DNA of 64,000 bases from an uncultured Anaerolineae bacterium (GTDB lineage: Bacteria; Chloroflexota; Anaerolineae; JACIWP01): NCBI GenBank assembly GCA_938049385.1, contig CALIBQ010000035.1:21278-85277 (forward strand), in the 5' to 3' direction. Positions 24,092 through 33,773 of this stretch are shown piece by piece. Positions within the stretch are counted from its first letter, which is position 1; each line of letters starts with the position of its first letter. The position numbers and the translations under genes are program-made. The notes beneath the pieces are model-generated. The model was given only the letters and a program-made list of their open reading frames with translations. It made no database searches and was not told the origin of the DNA.

Positions 24092-24294
24092 TCTGTCCCT
24101 GGACCTGAGAGATTTCCCCAGAGGTGGTATGCGGCATGGGAAACTGGGGTTGCCCCTTCGGTGTGGCGTCCACACTGCGTGGCGCCAGCTCTCCAGAGTG
24201 CGCCTCAACGCGATCCTTTTGCCTGAGAGTTTAGCAGGTGCGCTTGCCATTCCCCTTCGGCGGCCGGCCAGGCCGGCACTCTCTCGCGCTGAGG
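24089..24294 (-). ncRNA. Tandem glycine riboswitch
   Basis: Minus strand aptamer 1: P1 CCTCAGCGCG/CGCGTTGAGG, GAGAG...GCCGAAGGGG...AAACTCTCAGGCAAAAGGA. Aptamer 2: CACTCTGGAGAG...CACCGAAGGGGCAA...AATCTCTCAGGT...GACAGAGTG. These are hallmark glycine aptamer conserved strings. Confidence 0.92.
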
Positions 24295-24340
24295 TGTAAA
24301 TATGCACTTGATGAGATAAAGCTTCAACTAACCCACTATA

Positions 24341-24569: not shown

Positions 24570-26168
24570 ATGAATCTCGCAGTGCTCCTCGAGGAACAGA
24601 GGAACGCCATCGCCCAACGTTGGGCGGAGCTGATCCAGCGCGAGATGCCGCATACGCGATACGGCCAATGCGATATCGAACAGATCACCTATTTCAATCA
24701 CGTCGCCATTGACCTTATCCTGTCGCTGATGCGTTCCCCCAATACCCTCCCTTCCTGGATCTTTGATGAACCGCGTCGAAAATATCTGGCGTTGGGTGTT
24801 CCGCTGAGCGATGTGATCGAATCTGGCCTGCTCCTGCAGGAGACGTTGTGCAAGGAGGTACTGCAGGGCGCCGGCGAAACGGTGTACCGCGACATCCTCC
24901 CCGAACTCCAGTATATGGTGCGCAAATTCGTCACCCTGGTCGTGGATTACTACGCCGGTCAGCTCAATCTCCAGCTCGAGGAGCAGCGCGCCCGCTTGGC
25001 CTTTCTTCTGGACATCATCCGCCGTGCCAGCCGCACCCTCTCCGTCGAACAGCAGATTGACCTCGCGATTCAGAGCCTGAAGTCGGCGATAGGCACCGAG
25101 TACGGCATGCTCTATGTCATGAACGAGGAGCGCACCGCCGGCATCTTGCGAGGCGATATTGACGCCTTCCCTCCATCCCGGGACCCCAGTGTTCGAGAAT
25201 CGTTCCGCTATCCGCTTCCCCTTGCGAACACCGTCTTCACCCGCAAAGTGGCTGCTACCGGCCGGCCGGTCATCTATCAGGAAGAAGCCCCGGAGCGGGC
25301 GGATGACGAGATCGTCCAAACCTGTAGAAGATGGGATGTCCGCGCCATGCTGGGCATCCCATTCGTCGTGGAAGAGCGTATAGTCGCGGTGGGCCTGCTG
25401 TTTTCCACTGCCTCATCCGCTCTCATTTCTGACGAAAGGGTCGACCTGGCGGTGGATATCGCCAAGGCATTGGCGCCGGCGCTGGCCAATGCCCTGCTCC
25501 ACCAGCGTGTGAAGCAGTTGGCCATCATTGAGGAGCGGACCCGCCTGGCGCAGGAGCTTCACGATGACCTGGCGCAACTGCTCGGTGTCATGCAGTTGAA
25601 GGCCTCTCTGGCGGAACAACTGCTTGTCGAGGGCGATCTGAACCGGACGCTATCGCTACTGCTGGAGCTCCAAGAGACATTGAGCAAAGCGTATATTGAT
25701 ATGCGGGAGATCATCTTCAATCTGCGGGTCGCCGGCGCCGGCGGCAAAGCTCCGCTCCTGCCGGCGCTCCAGGAATACCTGGCGGACCTGAAGCGCTATT
25801 ACGGCATTGATGTCCTGCTGGAGGTCCGAGGATCGGTCACTGCCCAGCTCTCCGACCAAGAGCGCCTTCAGGTTATCCGCATCATTCAAGAGGCGCTGAC
25901 CAACGCCCGCAAGCATGCCAGCGCTACCCAGATCGGCCTGCGCCTATCCCAGGACCTGCATGCCTTGAGAATCTGCGTTAAGGACAACGGTCTGGGGTTT
26001 GACCCGACCCAGCTCGAGGATATCGGCAAAGAGCGGTTCGGACTGCAGGTCATGCGCGAGCGTGCCGCCAGCATCGGCGCCTCCATCGCCCTTTACTCAC
26101 AGCCCGGCCAGGGAACGCGGCTCACGCTGGAACTGCCGCTGACCGCCGGCCGAGGAGGTCCGCAGTGA
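24570..26168 (+). CDS. Soluble NarX/LiaS-type histidine kinase (N-terminal RsbRD_N/globin-like helical domain, GAF, HisKA_3, HATPase)
   Basis: EERTRLAQELHDDLAQ H-box, QEALTNARKHASA, KDNGLGFD, FGLQVMRERA, PGQGT; no TM segments. Confidence 0.9.
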   Translation: MNLAVLLEEQRNAIAQRWAELIQREMPHTRYGQCDIEQITYFNHVAIDLILSLMRSPNTLPSWIFDEPRRKYLALGVPLSDVIESGLLLQETLCKEVLQGAGETVYRDILPELQYMVRKFVTLVVDYYAGQLNLQLEEQRARLAFLLDIIRRASRTLSVEQQIDLAIQSLKSAIGTEYGMLYVMNEERTAGILRGDIDAFPPSRDPSVRESFRYPLPLANTVFTRKVAATGRPVIYQEEAPERADDEIVQTCRRWDVRAMLGIPFVVEERIVAVGLLFSTASSALISDERVDLAVDIAKALAPALANALLHQRVKQLAIIEERTRLAQELHDDLAQLLGVMQLKASLAEQLLVEGDLNRTLSLLLELQETLSKAYIDMREIIFNLRVAGAGGKAPLLPALQEYLADLKRYYGIDVLLEVRGSVTAQLSDQERLQVIRIIQEALTNARKHASATQIGLRLSQDLHALRICVKDNGLGFDPTQLEDIGKERFGLQVMRERAASIGASIALYSQPGQGTRLTLELPLTAGRGGPQ

Positions 26169-26830
26169 GTGCATCCATACGAGTTCTGGTGGTGGATGAC
26201 CATTTGCTGTTCCGCCGCGGTGTCCTGGCGGCCCTGGCTTCACGCCCTCACATCGAAGTGGTCGGGGAGGCCGGCGACGGCGAGGAAGCCGTCCGACTGG
26301 CGCGCCAGACCCAACCCGATGTCATCCTCATGGATATCGCCATGCCGGTATGCAGTGGGTTGGAGGCCACCCGCCAGATCAAGCGCGAACTGCCGCGGGT
26401 GAAGATCATTATGCTCACGGTTTCCGAGGAAGATGAGGCGCTCTTCGAAGCGATCCGCGCCGGCGCCGAGGGCTATCTGCTCAAAGACCTAAAGGTCAAC
26501 CAGCTTTTCGACGCCATCGAATCCGTGGTGCGCGGCGAGGCCCCGCTTTCCGGCGCCATCGCCGCCAAAATCCTGCGGGAGTTTCAGCGCTCGGCCCCTG
26601 CGCATGCCGCCGCATCGGGGCTTCCCGAGGCTCTCTCCGACAGGGAGATCGAAATCCTCACCCTGGTCGGTCAGGGCTTGTCCAATAAGGAAATCGCCGA
26701 GCGGCTGTACATTTCCGAGAGCACGGTGAAGAATCATCTGCGTACCATCCTGGACAAACTGCATCTCCGCAACCGCATCCAGGCCGCCATCTACGCCGCA
26801 CGCATCGGCCTGGTCAAAGACGTGCTCTGA
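26165..26830 (+). CDS. NarL/LuxR-family response regulator
   Basis: VLVVDDH, PDVILMDIAMP, GYLLKD, LSDREIEIL...GLSNKEIAERLYISESTVKNH; GTG start overlapping the kinase stop. Confidence 0.95.
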   Translation: MSASIRVLVVDDHLLFRRGVLAALASRPHIEVVGEAGDGEEAVRLARQTQPDVILMDIAMPVCSGLEATRQIKRELPRVKIIMLTVSEEDEALFEAIRAGAEGYLLKDLKVNQLFDAIESVVRGEAPLSGAIAAKILREFQRSAPAHAAASGLPEALSDREIEILTLVGQGLSNKEIAERLYISESTVKNHLRTILDKLHLRNRIQAAIYAARIGLVKDVL

Positions 26831-26885: not shown

Positions 26886-27018
26886 TCAATTTGGGCCGGC
26901 AGGACCTTCCCAACGGCCTGCTACACCGCTACAATATCCGCAGACGCAGAGGTAATCCCCATCGTTCTTGCTTCGTCCTGCCCGGGCGTTGGTCCGTTAC
27001 AAGCGTGGGGTGATTGGA

Positions 27019-27423
27019 ATGGTCCTTGAGCCGGCGCCGGCTAACCATACACCCCAACCTCCAGCACGACCGCGCGTGTTACTGCTGGCGGACGAGACCG
27101 TGCTTACCACGGGGCTCCGCGACCTGCTCAAGGAACGGGTCGAGCTAAAGGTTCTGCAAGCACACCAGCCGGAAGAGGAAATCACCGCCCACGTCCTGGA
27201 TTGGCAGCCCGATGTTATCTTGCTAACCTCACTGCCGGCCGCTTCCCTTCCATGTCCATGGGAGTGGGTGCGCCGGCTGAAGCACAAACACTGCTACCTG
27301 ATTCGACTGCCGCTACAGGACAATTCTATCGACGTTTGCGATGTCCAAACCCTGACTATCACCGACCTGGAGGCGCTGGTGCGGTTGATCGCCGCTAGGC
27401 CGGCCAGCGATACAAACCCATAA
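27019..27423 (+). CDS. Hypothetical protein with degenerate receiver-like fold
   Basis: RVLLLADE...GLRDLL...WQPDVILLT resembles REC beta1-beta3, but the phospho-Asp position is Thr. Confidence 0.6.
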   Translation: MVLEPAPANHTPQPPARPRVLLLADETVLTTGLRDLLKERVELKVLQAHQPEEEITAHVLDWQPDVILLTSLPAASLPCPWEWVRRLKHKHCYLIRLPLQDNSIDVCDVQTLTITDLEALVRLIAARPASDTNP

Positions 27424-27447: not shown

Positions 27448-28551
27448 GTGGACTCCGTACTGGCAGTGACCGCTCACACTCACGCTTGTTGTGAAGATCG
27501 GACTATACCGCCGGCACGGCATCTGCGTAAGCCGGTGACGTTCGTTACCGGCTTTCTGGGCGCCGGCAAGACCACCCTCATCAATCACCTCCTCTCCCTG
27601 CGCCGGCCGGCCGAACGCGTCGAGGTCGTCCTGCGCGAGTTCGGCGAGGTCGGCATCGACCAGGAGCTGATCGAAGATGAAGGGGTCAATGTCCAGGTCT
27701 TTGCCGGCAACTCCATCTTCATTGACCCGCAGACCAAGCTCCTCTGGGACCTGGAACGCCTCTACTCCCGCTGTGACCGCCTCGGCTCCGGCCAGTTCTC
27801 CTGGCAGGACGTGGACTTCGACCGCATCCTGCTGGAATCGAGCGGGCTGGACATCCCGGAATACATGGTAACGCTTTTCTATATTGACCGCATCCGCAAT
27901 CACTTCCGGCTGGACGCCGTGATTGCGGTGGTGGACGCGCAGTTCGGCGAGTTGAACCTGGAGGAGTACCGCAAGACACGCGAGCAGGTTTGCCTGGCGG
28001 ATATCCTTCTGCTCAATAAGATTGACCTGGCGACGCCAGAACAGATCGCCAGGCTGGAACGCCGGCTGTACCGCCTGAACCCCCTCGCCCGGCTGTATCA
28101 CACCCAATTCTGTCGGGCCAGCCGCGAGGCCCTCATGGATGTGGACCTGTTCGACGGCATCCCCGGCTTTGACCTGCTCCCTGAAGCCGCCGCGCGTCAT
28201 ACTTTCGGCCACAACGAGGAGGAACCCGTGGACGACTTCCAGAGCATCGTGCTCACCGAATCGCGCCCTCTGGACAAGGAGAAGGTCAACGTCTGGATCA
28301 GCGATATCATCACCCACAGCGGCCGGAAAATCCTGCGCGGCAAGGGGGTGCTGTGGTTCGCCGGCTACGACCACCGCTTCGTCTTCCAATGCGTGCGCAC
28401 CGCCTTCCACTCCAAGGCGGACCGGCTGTGGAAGCCCGATGAGGAGCGCAGAACCACCATCGTCTTCATCGGCGAGGACATCGCCGGCCTGGCGGAGGAG
28501 TGGCAGAGCGGGTTGAGTGCTTGTGCCGTATCTTCAGAGAAAGGAGGATAA
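27448..28551 (+). CDS. CobW/COG0523 (G3E) GTPase metallochaperone-like protein
   Basis: [42 protein letters not shown]-terminal CobW_C (ILRGKGVL...FQCV...IVFIG). The CxCC motif is absent. Confidence 0.9.
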
Positions 28552-28559
28552 CATCAACA

Positions 28560-28898
28560 GTGGCGGACGGCAGAGACCTCATCGAAGAGACCGTGGCCAT
28601 CATCGGCCAGATCAAGGAAGGGCTTCCAGCGGTCCAACCCCACTACTCGGCGGATGAGCTCGAGGAGCTGAAATCCTACCTCGAGAGCGCCGGCAAATGG
28701 GTCGCGGCCTGCCGCAAGAAAGTGTGGCTGCGCGGCCAGGAGGGCACAAGCATGGCCCAGAAGTGCCTGGATGTGGCCAAACACCTGCAAGAGATCCTCG
28801 ACAAGCCGGCGGCCGCGCTGGAGACCGCGGCGGACCTCTCTTATCAACTGGAAAACCTGGCACGGGTCATCGCGACCAAGTCCCAGGTCATGACCTAG
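28560..28898 (+). CDS. Hypothetical helical protein (112 aa)
   Basis: GTG 28560 downstream of AGGAGG; host-like codon usage; in operon position. Confidence 0.65.
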   Translation: MADGRDLIEETVAIIGQIKEGLPAVQPHYSADELEELKSYLESAGKWVAACRKKVWLRGQEGTSMAQKCLDVAKHLQEILDKPAAALETAADLSYQLENLARVIATKSQVMT

Positions 28899-29028: not shown

Positions 29029-30402
29029 ATGGCGTCCCAAGTGTTCTTCATGAACGACCGGGCCAACAGCCTGGCAGAGAGCATCAAATTCAAGGCGGTA
29101 AAGGTATTCCGCGATGCCGGCCTGGGCGAACTCTTTCTCCCTGGCGATTGGGTCGGCGTCAAAGTGCACTTCGGCGAGCACGGCAACTCGCTCAGTCTTC
29201 GCCCGCAGTACGTGCGCTCCATCGTGGAGGAGATTCAGCGGCTTGGCGCTAACCCGGTGGTGGTGGACTGCACGACCATCTGCTTCAACGAATACAGCTC
29301 CCGCGCTACCCGCACCGACATGCTGCGCACCGCGGCCCGCCACGGCTTCACCGAGGAAACCCTTGGCTGTCCCATATGGATCGCCGATGGCGAGTTCGGT
29401 GAGGAAGAGGTGAAGGTAGAGATCCCACACGGCGTCTATCTGACCCACAGCTACATGGGCCGCGGCCTCAAGTACCTCGATGCGATGATCGTGGTAACCC
29501 ATTTCAAAGGGCACCCCATGGGGGTGTTCGGCGGCGCGCTGAAGAACGTCGGAATCGGATGCGGCTCCAAGCGCGGCAAACTCTGCACCCACCTGCTGAA
29601 CCATCCGCTGTACGGCATCCGCAACTGGGGGATCAACCAGCAGGCCGCCCAGGCCGCCGCCCAGGCGCCGCATCCCAATGGGATTGACAGGTTGATGAAA
29701 AACTGCCCCTTCGATGCTTTCCGCTGGGAGAACGACACCCTGCATTTCGACCGTGAGAAATGCCAGATGTGCGCGGCCTGTTTTGGCCCTGGCCTTTTCT
29801 CCGGCATCCTCCAGCCCCCACCTGAGATCATGCTGATGTGGGCGGCGACCATCCCAGACGCCTTCGCCGGCTACGTCAACGCCATTGGCAAGGACAAGGT
29901 CGGCTACGTCACCTATGCGGTGGATATGACCCCCTGGTGCGACTGCGTCAACTGGAGCGATAAACCGCTGGTATTCAGCCTGGGCGTGTTCGCTTCCAAA
30001 GACCCGGTCGCCATTGACATGGCCTGCCTGGAGATGTCTGAGGCCCACTCCGCCGTCCCCGGTTCCAAGGCGGATGAACTGGGCTTCGCCGAGCCGGGCA
30101 CCGAGCGCTTCACCAACTGCGCCGGCTTCGCCGGCGTCAGCCAGTGGGCGCAGATCAACTCCGCCATTTACAACGGCCTCGGCACCTCCGAATATGAGCT
30201 GATCCTCTCCTCCCCAGTGACCGATGACACCCAGTTCTGGATGAAACCATACACCCCGGAGAATCCATGGGGATGGGTCCACCGCAAGGAGCACCATAAG
30301 ATTGACTGGACAGTGGAGCCGTACACGCATCGCGATCTGCAGTTCTCCATGGTTGACATGAGCGTCAAACCCAAGGGCAAGGTCGCCGAGCGCGAACTGT
30401 AA
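29029..30402 (+). CDS. DUF362-domain Fe-S protein
   Basis: VGVKVHFGEHGN, VVTHFKGHPMGVFGGALKNVGIGC, ferredoxin-like CQMCAAC, PWCDC, ASKDPVAIDMAC. Confidence 0.88.
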   Translation: MASQVFFMNDRANSLAESIKFKAVKVFRDAGLGELFLPGDWVGVKVHFGEHGNSLSLRPQYVRSIVEEIQRLGANPVVVDCTTICFNEYSSRATRTDMLRTAARHGFTEETLGCPIWIADGEFGEEEVKVEIPHGVYLTHSYMGRGLKYLDAMIVVTHFKGHPMGVFGGALKNVGIGCGSKRGKLCTHLLNHPLYGIRNWGINQQAAQAAAQAPHPNGIDRLMKNCPFDAFRWENDTLHFDREKCQMCAACFGPGLFSGILQPPPEIMLMWAATIPDAFAGYVNAIGKDKVGYVTYAVDMTPWCDCVNWSDKPLVFSLGVFASKDPVAIDMACLEMSEAHSAVPGSKADELGFAEPGTERFTNCAGFAGVSQWAQINSAIYNGLGTSEYELILSSPVTDDTQFWMKPYTPENPWGWVHRKEHHKIDWTVEPYTHRDLQFSMVDMSVKPKGKVAEREL

Positions 30403-30436: not shown

Positions 30437-32290
30437 ATGAAAGGCGGGTATGTCGGCAAGATTCTGGTGGTGGACCTCTCCAACAACTCCACCGAGGTGC
30501 AAGAGCTCCCCGAGGAAATGTACCGGAACTTCCTGGGCGGTTACGGTCTGGGCGCTCGCATCCTGTACAGCATGATGAAGCCCGGCATTGACCCTTTGGG
30601 GCCGGACAATATCATCGGCTTCGTGCCAGGACTGCTCACCGGCACGGGAGCTCCTTTCACCGGTCGTTATATGGTGGTGTGCAAATCCCCTGTTACCGGC
30701 GGCTGGAATGACGCGAATTCTGGCGGCTTTTTCGGTCCGGAATTGAAGAAAGCCGGCTTCGACGGGGTCTTTATCAAGGGCGCCGCCAAGGAACCGGTCT
30801 ACCTCTGGATCCACGACGGAAAGGCGGAGATCCGCTCTGCTAAACATCTGTGGGGCCTGGATTCCGAGGCCGGCCGCGAGGCACTGCGGAAAGAGACTGA
30901 CCCCGAGGCCCAAGAAGCCATGATCGGTCCCGCCGGCGAAGCGCTGTCCTACATGGCGGCCGTGATGAATGACAAACATCGCGCCGCCGGCCGCGGCGGG
31001 GCCGGCGCTGTCATGGGCTCCAAGAAACTCAAAGCGGTCGTCGTGCGGGGGACCGACGAGGTGCCCGTCGCGTACCCCGAACGGCTGAAAGAAGTCCAGC
31101 GCGCGCTGTCCGCTGCGATGAAGAACTCTGACCTGGCCAAACTGTTCCACGAGCACGGCACCGGTGCCTTCAACGGCCCCTCCGCGCTGAGCGGCGACAC
31201 ACCCGTGAAGAACTGGGCCGGCGTGGGCATCATCGATTTCGGCGAGGACGGCGCCAACGCTATCGCCGGCCCAACCCTTGATCCCAAGTACAAGGTCAAA
31301 CCTTACGGGTGCGCCAACTGCCCCCTGGTCTGCGGCGCCCACTACGAGGTCAAGGACGGCAAGTGGATCAAGGGCATGACCGAACGGCCAGAGTACGAGA
31401 CGGCGGCATCCTTCGGCACCCTGCTCCTGAACAAGGACGCGGAAGCCATCTTCGCCTGCAACGATATCTGCAACCGCTATGGCCTCGACACCATCTCCAC
31501 CGGCATGACCATCGCCTGGGCCATGGAATGCTACGAGAAGGGCATCCTGACCAAGGAGGAGCTGAACGGGCTGGACCTCAAATGGGGCAACGCGGAAGCT
31601 ATCGTTGAACTGACGAAAGCCATCGCCGAGCAGAAGGGCATCGGTAAGGTGCTGGCCAAAGGCTCGGCGAAGGCGGCAGACGAATTAGGCAAGGGTCATG
31701 AGTGCCTGATCACGGTGAAGGGCATTGAACTACCTATGCACGATCCACGGCTCTCCCCTGGCTATGCCCGCACCTATCAGTTCGACCCGACGCCCGGCCG
31801 GCATGTCAAAGGCGGCCTCGGCGGCATGCAGTTGCTGATGCCCAGCCCAGCCAAATACATCCCCGAAGGGACTGGATTCCTGGATGTGCTCCTCACTACC
31901 GGCTCGGAGGTCGAAAGTTCCGCCGGCCTCTGCATGTTCAGCGGATTTCTCGGCATGCAGAATCTCGCCCAGAGGTTGATCGAAGCGGTAACCGGCTGGA
32001 ACTTCAAAGGTCAGGATGTCCTGCGCACCGGCGCTCGCATCCTGAACATGCGCCATGTCTTCAACCTGCGCGAGGGCTTCACGCCCAAGGACTTCGTCAT
32101 CCCGCCGCGCGCCATCGGGGTGCCGCCGCTCCAAGCCGGCCCGACCGCCGGCATCACCATTAACGCCCAGCGCTTGGCGGAGAACTTCTTCCACTTCATA
32201 GGCTGGGATATGGAGACCGGCAAGCCCAGCAAGTACTCTCTGGAGCATCTGGGCAGCATGGATGATGTGATCAAAGACCTCTACGGATGA
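30437..32290 (+). CDS. aor: Aldehyde:ferredoxin oxidoreductase (W/bis-pterin AOR family)
   Basis: GGYVGKILVVDLS, KSPVTGG, SGGFFGPELKKAGFD, GRGGAGAVMGSKKLKAV, CANCPLVC, PEYET, GLDTISTG, LPMHDPR, GLCMF. Confidence 0.93.
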   Translation: MKGGYVGKILVVDLSNNSTEVQELPEEMYRNFLGGYGLGARILYSMMKPGIDPLGPDNIIGFVPGLLTGTGAPFTGRYMVVCKSPVTGGWNDANSGGFFGPELKKAGFDGVFIKGAAKEPVYLWIHDGKAEIRSAKHLWGLDSEAGREALRKETDPEAQEAMIGPAGEALSYMAAVMNDKHRAAGRGGAGAVMGSKKLKAVVVRGTDEVPVAYPERLKEVQRALSAAMKNSDLAKLFHEHGTGAFNGPSALSGDTPVKNWAGVGIIDFGEDGANAIAGPTLDPKYKVKPYGCANCPLVCGAHYEVKDGKWIKGMTERPEYETAASFGTLLLNKDAEAIFACNDICNRYGLDTISTGMTIAWAMECYEKGILTKEELNGLDLKWGNAEAIVELTKAIAEQKGIGKVLAKGSAKAADELGKGHECLITVKGIELPMHDPRLSPGYARTYQFDPTPGRHVKGGLGGMQLLMPSPAKYIPEGTGFLDVLLTTGSEVESSAGLCMFSGFLGMQNLAQRLIEAVTGWNFKGQDVLRTGARILNMRHVFNLREGFTPKDFVIPPRAIGVPPLQAGPTAGITINAQRLAENFFHFIGWDMETGKPSKYSLEHLGSMDDVIKDLYG

Positions 32291-32364: not shown

Positions 32365-32631
32365 ATGAAAATCCAGGTGAAATTCTTCGTCCCACTGAAT
32401 ATCCAGGTCGGCACAAATCAGTTGGAGATCGAACTGCCGGACGGCGCAACCGGCCGGGACTTACTGCGATACCTGGCAGACCGGTTCTCCGAGAACCAGT
32501 CGGTGCGCAGGCGCTTTCTGGGCGGCCGAGTTCTGTTCCTGGTCGGGAAGGAATTTATCAGCTTGGATTCGCCATTACAGGATCAGATGACGCTGGTCAT
32601 CCTTCCCCAGGGCAGTTGCTGTCATCCATAA
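32365..32631 (+). CDS. MoaD/ThiS-like beta-grasp protein with atypical C-terminus (..ILPQGSCCHP)
   Basis: MKIQVKFF...IELPDGATGRDLL..L...LDSPLQDQMTLVILP gives a MoaD pattern; it ends in CCHP rather than GG. Confidence 0.8.
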   Translation: MKIQVKFFVPLNIQVGTNQLEIELPDGATGRDLLRYLADRFSENQSVRRRFLGGRVLFLVGKEFISLDSPLQDQMTLVILPQGSCCHP

Positions 32632-32654
32632 GCTTGTACGGGGAGTGAATATCC

Positions 32655-33524
32655 ATGAAAACCATCCTCATTACCGGTGGCGCCGGCAGTGTCGGCAAAG
32701 AACTCACCTTCAAGCTGGTATCCCAGGGCCATCGCGTGCGGGTCTTCGACCTGCCTATTTGCGACTTCTCCGACCTGGAGGCCAAGGCCGGCGTCGAAAT
32801 CATCAAGGGCGACATCCGCGACGCGGCCCTCGTGAAAGAGGCCGTTCAGGGCACCGATATCGTGCTCCATCTCGCCGCCATTTTGCCGCCGGCCAGCGAA
32901 CGCGACCGCGCCCGCACCTTCGGCGTCAACGTCGAGGGCACCCAGCGTGTTGTTGAGGCTGGCCGCGAGACCGGCGGCACCAGCCGGCTCATCTTCGCTT
33001 CCAGTGTCGCCACCTACGGCAACACCACCGCCTCCACCCCACCCATCCGCGTGGGCCACCCTCAGCGCCCCATCGACATCTACGGTGAGAGCAAGGTGGC
33101 GGCGGAGCAGATCATCCTGCAGGCCGGCATCCCCTACACCATCCTGCGCATCTCCGGCATCGTCATCCCGGCCCTGCTGGACCCGCCCGACCCCTACCCC
33201 TTCACCGCCGGACAGCGCATCGAACTTGTCTGCCGGGCCGATGTGGTCACGGCACTGCTGGCCGCGATTGACAAGGACGCGGCGGCGAATACAATTTTCA
33301 ATATCGCCGGCGGCCCCTCCTGGCAGATGTACGGGCATGAGTATGTGGAGAAAGTCTTCCCCATCCTCGACATCCCGATCGAGGACGCACATTACCGGGA
33401 GGAGCCGGGCTGGAGCGACTGGTACGATACCGCCGAATCGCAGGCCCTGCTGGGCTACCAGAACACGCCCTTTGAGGTCTACCTGGATCAGCTTGAGAAA
33501 GCCGTCCTGGAAGCGCTGGGATAG
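32655..33524 (+). CDS. NAD-dependent epimerase/dehydratase (extended SDR)
   Basis: ILITGGAGSVG, HLAA, ASSVATYG, YGESK (YxxxK), ILRISG. Confidence 0.92.
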   Translation: MKTILITGGAGSVGKELTFKLVSQGHRVRVFDLPICDFSDLEAKAGVEIIKGDIRDAALVKEAVQGTDIVLHLAAILPPASERDRARTFGVNVEGTQRVVEAGRETGGTSRLIFASSVATYGNTTASTPPIRVGHPQRPIDIYGESKVAAEQIILQAGIPYTILRISGIVIPALLDPPDPYPFTAGQRIELVCRADVVTALLAAIDKDAAANTIFNIAGGPSWQMYGHEYVEKVFPILDIPIEDAHYREEPGWSDWYDTAESQALLGYQNTPFEVYLDQLEKAVLEALG

Positions 33525-33527
33525 GGT

Positions 33528-33773
33528 ATGCAAATCAAGGTGAAATTCCTGCCGCCTGTGCGGGAGCACATCGGGAAGGAGAGCGTTATACTGGACCTGC
33601 CGGCCGGCGCCACCGTTGCCCAGGCGCTGGCCGCCGTGCGTGCCCAATTCCCTGCCCCCAGCGACATGCTAGATAACCTGCTGTTCATGGTCAACTACTA
33701 CCGCGCCCAACCAGATACTGTCCTCCAGGAGGGCGACGAGGTCATCTGTTTCAAACTGCTGGGAGGCGGATGA
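33528..33773 (+). CDS. moaD: MoaD/ThiS-family sulfur carrier (canonical C-terminal GG)
   Basis: MQIKVKFL...LPAGATVAQAL...LQEGDEVICFKLLGGG*. Confidence 0.85.
   Translation: MQIKVKFLPPVREHIGKESVILDLPAGATVAQALAAVRAQFPAPSDMLDNLLFMVNYYRAQPDTVLQEGDEVICFKLLGGG

Follow-up and report, generated by a model that had tools for sequence, protein, structure and literature searches.

A MoaD-fold protein ending in Cys-Cys-His-Pro, encoded beside a tungsten-type aldehyde:ferredoxin oxidoreductase in an Anaerolineae genome

The window analysed here, a stretch of 64,000 nucleotides from an uncultured Anaerolineae bacterium (contig CALIBQ010000035.1 of assembly GCA_938049385.1, positions 21,278 to 85,277), carries a gene for a tungsten-type aldehyde:ferredoxin oxidoreductase (AOR) and, immediately after it, a gene here called Ubl-CCHP, for a small ubiquitin-like protein (Ubl) that ends in two cysteines, a histidine and a proline. 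Ubl-CCHP begins 75 nt 3′ of the AOR stop codon and is followed by a gene for an extended short-chain dehydrogenase/reductase (SDR) and then by a second Ubl gene, Ubl-GG, situated 897 bp past the Ubl-CCHP stop (Table 1). The open reading frame (ORF) of 88 codons is intact (translation MKIQVKFFVPLNIQVGTNQLEIELPDGATGRDLLRYLADRFSENQSVRRRFLGGRVLFLVGKEFISLDSPLQDQMTLVILPQGSCCHP, then a stop), the last residues of the product being ...ILPQGSCCHP and the terminal codons TGC TGT CAT CCA TAA. In an earlier note, made from the sequence alone, the protein had been read as a MoaD paralog in which di-cysteine replaces the di-glycine, with each of the two Cys codons a single base away from a Gly codon and with a GG-type paralog about 900 bp downstream. 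All of this holds, and the AOR, DUF362, CobW and GG-paralog neighbours that the note had listed turn out to be conserved in the cluster.

The assignment to the ThiS/MoaD superfamily is provided by the Pfam family PF02597, which matches Ubl-CCHP with 26 bits (E-value 1.4e-5), above the gathering score of 22.5. The protein falls outside the MoaD equivalog TIGR01682, for which it scores 24.1 bits against a cut-off of 66.15, and its score for TIGR01687 is likewise below the cut-off (22.1 and 49.5 bits, respectively). An AlphaFold2 model computed from a 28-sequence alignment has a mean predicted local distance difference test score (pLDDT) of 91.9 and a predicted template-modelling score (pTM) of 0.81, and its elements follow the order of a beta-grasp fold. 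The confidence falls to a pLDDT of 63 only in the last 8 residues, so the C-terminal arm is probably flexible. In a Foldseek comparison with the PDB, the model matches the E. coli MoaD (1fm0_D), a mycobacterial MoaD (6jc0), SAMP1 (3po0) and a MoaD-like protein of P. furiosus (1vjk) with template-modelling (TM) scores of 0.71-0.77, and 1vjk is also the top PDB match by sequence profile. Strand 5 terminates at Pro81 and Cys85-Cys86 follow four residues on, which is the same spacing as that between the first proline of the PPxSGG motif and the Gly-Gly in MoaD; in a MAFFT alignment the two cysteines are likewise placed in the Gly-Gly columns of the relatives. Ubl-CCHP is thus a MoaD-fold paralog in which Cys-Cys takes the place that Gly-Gly has in the canonical structure.

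The unusual tail is shared by a small family of proteins. Two congeneric orthologs, which are only 60% identical to Ubl-CCHP, end in LIPSGSCCHP with the GSCCHP unchanged, and the gene order around them (AOR, Ubl-CCHP, SDR, GG-Ubl, EF-G) equals that of the window. More distant relatives were collected in an exhaustive HMMER scan of 1.84 billion representative proteins and then in a profile search across 5.8 billion clusters, which gave 14 protein clusters with 33-63% identity to Ubl-CCHP and scores of 98-136 bits, whereas the best ordinary MoaD ending in ...PPVSGG reaches at most 42 bits with the family profile, leaving a gap of more than 55 bits. The termini of all 14 clusters are either CCHP, in an 88-aa type, or CCH, in an 82-aa type, and the residues corresponding to C85, C86 and H87 are invariant throughout. 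At the DNA level both Cys codons (TGC/TGT), the His codon (CAT/CAC), the Pro codon (CCN) and the stop codons vary synonymously, which marks the tail residues as being under purifying selection.

The CCH(P) family is very rare, with only 14 of the 5.8 billion clusters belonging to it. When 400 genomes from the phylum were surveyed, no member turned up outside the genome of the window, and a word-based homolog search with the single Ubl-CCHP protein returned the query alone. Reference genomes offered 13 Ubls beside 80 related AOR genes; 12 of them end in GG, one in EAG and none in CC. The searchable literature yielded no report of a MoaD or ThiS with a Cys tail. The C-terminal variation of AOR-linked Ubls is also greater than the Gly-Gly rule suggests. 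An AOR-adjacent Ubl at L068:7865-8110 (L numbers denote the loci compared) ends in ...RSVEAG, and some MoaD relatives (P0021, P0022) carry a Cys-containing extension after the Gly-Gly, reading ...PPVSGGCHV or ...PPVSGGCGAG.

The genomic setting of the family is consistent. An AOR gene or the TIGR04317 maturase lies no more than three genes away in every contig that extends upstream, namely in the window, L002, L003, L012, L013, L010, L061 and L009. As in the window, the Ubl gene directly follows the AOR gene in L002, L003, L012, L010 and L061, and in L013 the AOR is within three genes. The maturase in L009 is a "tungsten cofactor oxidoreductase radical SAM maturase" recognised by TIGR04317 with 403.8 bits (cut-off 380). 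A GG-type partner Ubl is found in all nine family loci whose contigs are long enough. An AOR gene or its maturase, together with a GG-type partner Ubl, are therefore the features common to all informative CCH(P) loci.

The cluster of the window recurs in the metagenome contigs L012 and L013, whose family members share only 33-38% identity. Its conserved order is a CobW-like GTPase, a helical protein, a DUF362/Fe-S protein, the AOR, a slot, the SDR and the GG-Ubl, and this slot between the AOR and the SDR varies in content. It is empty in L063, a metagenome-assembled genome (MAG) of Chloroflexi, and in L070, the cultured Youngiibacter multivorans DSM 6139. It contains the CCHP type only in the window, L002, L003 and L012, the CCHP type together with a second Ubl ending in ...R(I/L)(S/A)GI (the SGI type) in L013, L057 and L060, and the SGI type only in L142-L144. 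In some clusters a PrxU-type peroxiredoxin and a ThiO/DAO-type flavoprotein precede the slot, with the stop codon of the flavoprotein gene and the beginning of the Ubl gene overlapping. The fuller cluster comprises about ten genes (a two-component system, a receiver-like protein, the CobW-like, helical and DUF362/Fe-S proteins, the AOR, optionally the peroxiredoxin and the DAO-type protein, optionally the Ubl slot, the SDR and the GG-Ubl) and is common to Chloroflexota MAGs and the cultured Youngiibacter multivorans DSM 6139. The arrangements around the 82-aa CCH type are different, with the order AOR, Ubl-CCH, Ubl-GG in L010 and L061 and Ubl-GG, Ubl-CCH in L011. In L009 the TIGR04317 radical SAM gene is followed by a GG-Ubl, a 122-aa Ubl-like ORF and the Ubl-CCH. 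The 122-aa ORF (L009:1520-1888) has a ThiS/MoaD-like start (MTLKLEVWLYGELRKYAK...) and a long C-terminal extension, and Pfam and NCBIfam scans gave no match for it.

In the Ubl phylogeny the last seven residues were cut before the tree was computed, so that the tail could not drive the grouping. The CCH, CCHP and SGI proteins group together in a single clade (96/91), which is separate from the clade of the partner GG-Ubls (87/94) and from the housekeeping MoaDs. Within this clade the SGI family branches from among the CC types, and the simplest reading of the tree would be that Cys-Cys-His is ancestral for the clade and SGI came later; the SGI tail probably arose after a tandem duplication. 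The SGI family consists of about 20 clusters of an 87-aa MoaD-fold protein (P0006, P0019, P0046-P0063) and appears to be undescribed. It resembles Ubl-CCHP in the shared clade, the similar length and the slot upstream of the SDR in the AOR cluster, but its tail, which is just as rigidly conserved as that of the CCH(P) proteins, is an invariant ...R(I/L)(S/A)GI that contains neither Cys nor His. The SGI genes, exemplified by L057:1784-2047, L060:942-1205 and L142:9521-9784, lie upstream of the SDR gene, their start often overlapping the stop of the ThiO/DAO-type flavoprotein gene.

The remaining genes of the cluster in the window (Table 1) add further detail to the setting. The SDR gene, which separates Ubl-CCHP from Ubl-GG, is kept in both the CCHP-type and the SGI-type clusters, and the trio of sensor kinase, response regulator and receiver-like protein also precedes the cluster in L012, L013 and L142. 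The loss of the CxCC motif in the CobW-like GTPase is common to the whole cluster family, the relatives reading GGCLF or GVSMH at this position. The N-termini of these GTPases are rich in His and Cys, with HTHACC in the window and a long His-rich stretch in Youngiibacter. The possibility that the CCH tail supplies the missing CxCC in trans is not supported, as the motif is also missing in L142, where the slot holds only the SGI type, and in L070, where the slot is empty. The small helical protein gave no family match. DUF362 has been assigned to the LarA clan CL0471 (PMC11770544), and LarC is adjacent in L012 and L013, which provided a lead towards a nickel-pincer link. This link was dropped, since the larE-larB-larC operon of the genome is on another contig and is explained by four ordinary LarA (DUF2088) homologs. 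The genome also encodes six DUF362 proteins (operon, LarA homologs and DUF362 proteins together: C24:19710-22509, C57, C55, C3, C25), and judging by its gene content the organism probably makes the nickel-pincer cofactor. No molybdenum- or tungsten-cofactor (Moco/Tuco) riboswitch was found upstream of the AOR cluster; the only riboswitch there is a glycine aptamer, which lies just upstream of divergent serine-pathway genes and is unrelated to the cluster.

Table 1. Features of the AOR cluster and its upstream flank, in window coordinates.
Feature	Position	Strand	Description
Glycine riboswitch aptamer	24201-24296	-	RF00504, 63 bits
Sensor kinase	24570-26168	+	
Response regulator	26165-26830	+	LuxR/GerE type
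Receiver-like protein	26968-27423	+	151 aa
CobW/COG0523-type GTPase	27448..28551	+	CxCC metal motif replaced by GNSIF; HTHACC in the N-terminus
Small helical protein	28560..28898	+	~112 aa, conserved; start inferred from homologs beginning MADGR...
DUF362 protein	29029..30402	+	with an inserted 4Fe-4S dicluster-like (ferredoxin-like) segment
AOR	30437..32290	+	AOR sensu stricto, tungsten type; nearest experimental structure P. furiosus 1AOR, E 9e-115
Ubl-CCHP	32365..32631	+	88-aa MoaD/ThiS-fold protein (ORF, Pfam, model); terminus Cys85-Cys86-His87-Pro88
SDR	32655..33524	+	289 aa; extended SDR of the NAD-dependent epimerase/dehydratase family, with the motifs TGGAGxxG and YxxxK
Ubl-GG	33528..33773	+	81-aa MoaD/ThiS-fold protein; terminus ...FKLLGGG

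Ubl-CCHP is one of four Ubl-type genes in the genome. A canonical MoaD ending in ...PPVSGG is encoded directly upstream of MoaE on contig C34, and the two E1-like genes are on C63 and C3, so that neither an E1 nor a MoaE is present in the AOR cluster. With the housekeeping MoaD-MoaE pair located elsewhere, Ubl-CCHP is neither required for bulk molybdopterin synthesis nor a component of that pathway. It is instead specific to one AOR clade: the genome has about 14 AOR-family paralogs, and only the copy in the window has adjacent Ubls. The AOR family of the genome, recorded on contigs C1, C7, C12, C15, C17, C23, C33, C40, C43, C51 and C73, shows how heavily the organism invests in tungsten enzymes. 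The genome's nearest TIGR04317-like gene is 36% identical and is located on a different contig beside a permease gene.

Adenylation and thiocarboxylation by E1/MoeB chemistry require a terminal Gly-Gly carboxylate. As Ubl-CCHP has no terminal Gly carboxylate, it would presumably not be activated in the manner of MoaD, and any cargo or contact would be held by side chains, that is, by two thiolates and an imidazole. We tentatively propose that Ubl-CCHP may be an optional accessory of one tungsten AOR clade, with the thiol/imidazole arm used in the maturation or upkeep of the cofactor. In such a scheme the protein would act together with the co-encoded GG-type Ubl, and its arm might insert into a partner in the way that the MoaD tail enters MoaE or MoeB. 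Candidate cargoes, named here speculatively, would be persulfide or polysulfide sulfur derived from the thiocarboxylate of the GG partner, or a soft metal or thiometallate species, and delivery would take place while the AOR cofactor matures or is maintained. A more far-reaching version of the proposal holds that the CCH-tailed proteins represent a new carrier mode of the beta-grasp fold, their side-chain thiolates carrying sulfane sulfur from the GG-Ubl, or tungsten, thiotungstate or another metal, into the AOR clade or into the DUF362 or SDR partners; this we regard as unlikely.

Several observations weigh against the proposed role of the arm. First, the slot is empty in L063 and L070 even though the CobW-like GTPase, the helical protein, DUF362, AOR, SDR and GG-Ubl are all present, so Ubl-CCHP is dispensable for that AOR clade. 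Next, the thiol-less SGI sister stands alone in the slot of L142-L144, and the AORs of L142 and of L012, the latter linked to a CCHP protein, share 79% identity. The thirteen other AOR paralogs of the genome have, moreover, no adjacent Ubl, and no AOR residue was found to co-vary with the presence of the CC protein. Finally, three ligands per monomer are insufficient to complete a metal site alone. The empty slot, the SGI sister and the partnerless AOR paralogs make it less likely that the cluster depends strictly on the thiols.

An alternative is a non-catalytic adaptor or decoy, in which the CCH/CCHP/SGI clade would use its beta-grasp surface to bind one of the partners of the GG-Ubl (E1, a MoaE-like protein, SDR or AOR) and the tail would be a tuning or blocking epitope with no sulfur or metal chemistry. 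The thiol-less family that is nested within the CC clade and occupies the same slot speaks for such a protein, as do the clusters with nothing in the slot and a slot content that changes fast relative to the divergence of the AOR. The adaptor reading is nevertheless unlikely, since the Cys-Cys-His is invariant down to 33% identity with synonymous codon turnover, a stronger conservation than a mere epitope would call for, and since the CCHP and SGI types occur in tandem in L013, L057 and L060 and are thus not simply interchangeable.

The overlap with the flavoprotein gene raises the alternative of a redox swinging arm, in which the two vicinal cysteines at the C-terminus, as dithiol or disulfide, would pass reducing equivalents from one neighbouring oxidoreductase to another, or hold sulfur that stems from a substrate. 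Ubl-CCHP would then be comparable to the C-terminal tails of MerA, the large thioredoxin reductases and DsrC that are discussed below. In the clade ending in YISCCHP (L013, L057-L060) the Ubl gene overlaps the stop of a DAO-type FAD oxidoreductase gene by 4 nt and comes after a PrxU-type peroxiredoxin gene, and the vicinal cysteines are placed on a tail that is modelled with low confidence and is probably flexible. Such a function is judged distinctly unlikely, however, because the DAO and peroxiredoxin genes are not beside the Ubl gene in the window, in L012 or in the CCH-type loci, the SGI type is coupled to the DAO gene in the same manner in L142-L144 while having no thiols at all, and a disulfide reductase role is foreign to the DAO-family flavoproteins.

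SPASM enzymes commonly act on the C-terminal residues of small proteins, and the CCH-type gene of L009 is located between two radical SAM/SPASM genes, one of them TIGR04317. The CCH(P) end could accordingly be a precursor or substrate that is modified or cleaved, for instance by the AOR-associated radical SAM/SPASM maturase, giving either an altered C-terminus or a small product that contains sulfur. This is very unlikely, given that most loci, including the window, have no radical SAM gene nearby, that the TIGR04317-like gene of the genome is on another contig, and that a protease or cyclodehydratase is absent from the clusters. The last alternative, that a GG-type MoaD has undergone a private mutation, is decaying into a pseudogene or was misread in sequencing, was the case that the earlier note had named against its own claim and is suggested by the single-base distance of each Cys codon from a Gly codon, but its probability is practically negligible and the reading is refuted, as two congeners with 60% identity and 14 clusters of independent metagenomic origin all keep the tail, with synonymous codon turnover, intact frames and a confidently predicted fold.

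Proteins of the MoaD, ThiS and ubiquitin type are defined by the chemistry of their Gly-Gly carboxylate, and a conserved exchange to Cys-Cys-His on the same arm departs from the textbook motif. The exchange suggests that the fold has been reused, either for carriage by side chains or for plugging the active site of a partner. The setting is the poorly understood maturation of tungsten enzymes, including the AOR-linked radical SAM reaction and the roles of AorD/AorE-type proteins, and a side-chain carrier mode, if true, would expose an undescribed late step in it. The analysis also defines a ten-gene AOR cluster with a CxCC-less CobW-like GTPase, DUF362, SDR and two or three types of Ubl, the biology of which is made accessible to experiment by the cultured Youngiibacter multivorans DSM 6139. 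The extreme rarity of the CCH(P) family limits its general importance unless the chemistry proves to be new.

Compared with known systems, Ubl-CCHP resembles MoaD itself (PDB 1fm0, 1jw9; TIGR01682) in the beta-grasp fold, the length and the number of residues that separate the end of strand 5 from the terminal dipeptide. Unlike MoaD, it has no Gly-Gly and adjoins neither MoaE nor MoeB, and the family has one or two extra residues after the dipeptide position. A more distant parallel is offered by C-terminal arms with vicinal cysteines, such as the CC tail of MerA, the GCUG/SCCS tail of the large thioredoxin reductases (TrxR) and the arm of DsrC, which reach another active site and carry metal, electrons or sulfur to it. 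These share with Ubl-CCHP an adjacent or nearby Cys pair on a mobile C-terminal tail, but the likeness is an analogy only, as there is no kinship in sequence or fold, and the tail is either on the enzyme itself (MerA, TrxR) or on a different fold (DsrC).

The closest counterparts are other AOR-linked Ubls of the MoaD family. Such MoaD genes have been described in "tungsten cofactor biosynthesis" neighbourhoods by Iyer, Burroughs and Aravind in 2006 (PMC1779556), and in T. kodakarensis the gene for TK1065/UblC has aor on one side and a radical SAM gene on the other (PMC11323500). AorD and AorE, a pair of MoaD-like proteins, come from Aromatoleum aromaticum (PMC6365974, PMC9295118), and when their genes were co-expressed the activity of the recombinant AOR rose from 4.5 to 16 U/mg (PMC9295118); Aromatoleum evansii has served as a tungsten-competent host for aorABCDE. 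The published aorDE effect and the aor-ublC-radical SAM arrangement of Thermococcus demonstrate the importance of AOR-linked MoaD-like proteins for enzymes of this kind. Ubl-CCHP has in common with them a small MoaD fold, a gene beside the AOR, sometimes a pairing of Ubls and sometimes a Cmo-type radical SAM gene, the comparison with AorD and AorE being drawn from the published description of those proteins. Where the terminus is stated, however, the AOR-linked Ubls end in Gly-Gly, and TK1065 is competent in adenylation and conjugation, whereas Ubl-CCHP has the CCH(P) tail and belongs to a clade of its own. Of the known systems, Ubl-CCHP is thus closest to the AOR-linked Ubls of the MoaD family, with which it shares the fold and the neighbourhood, while departing from them in the defining Gly-Gly.

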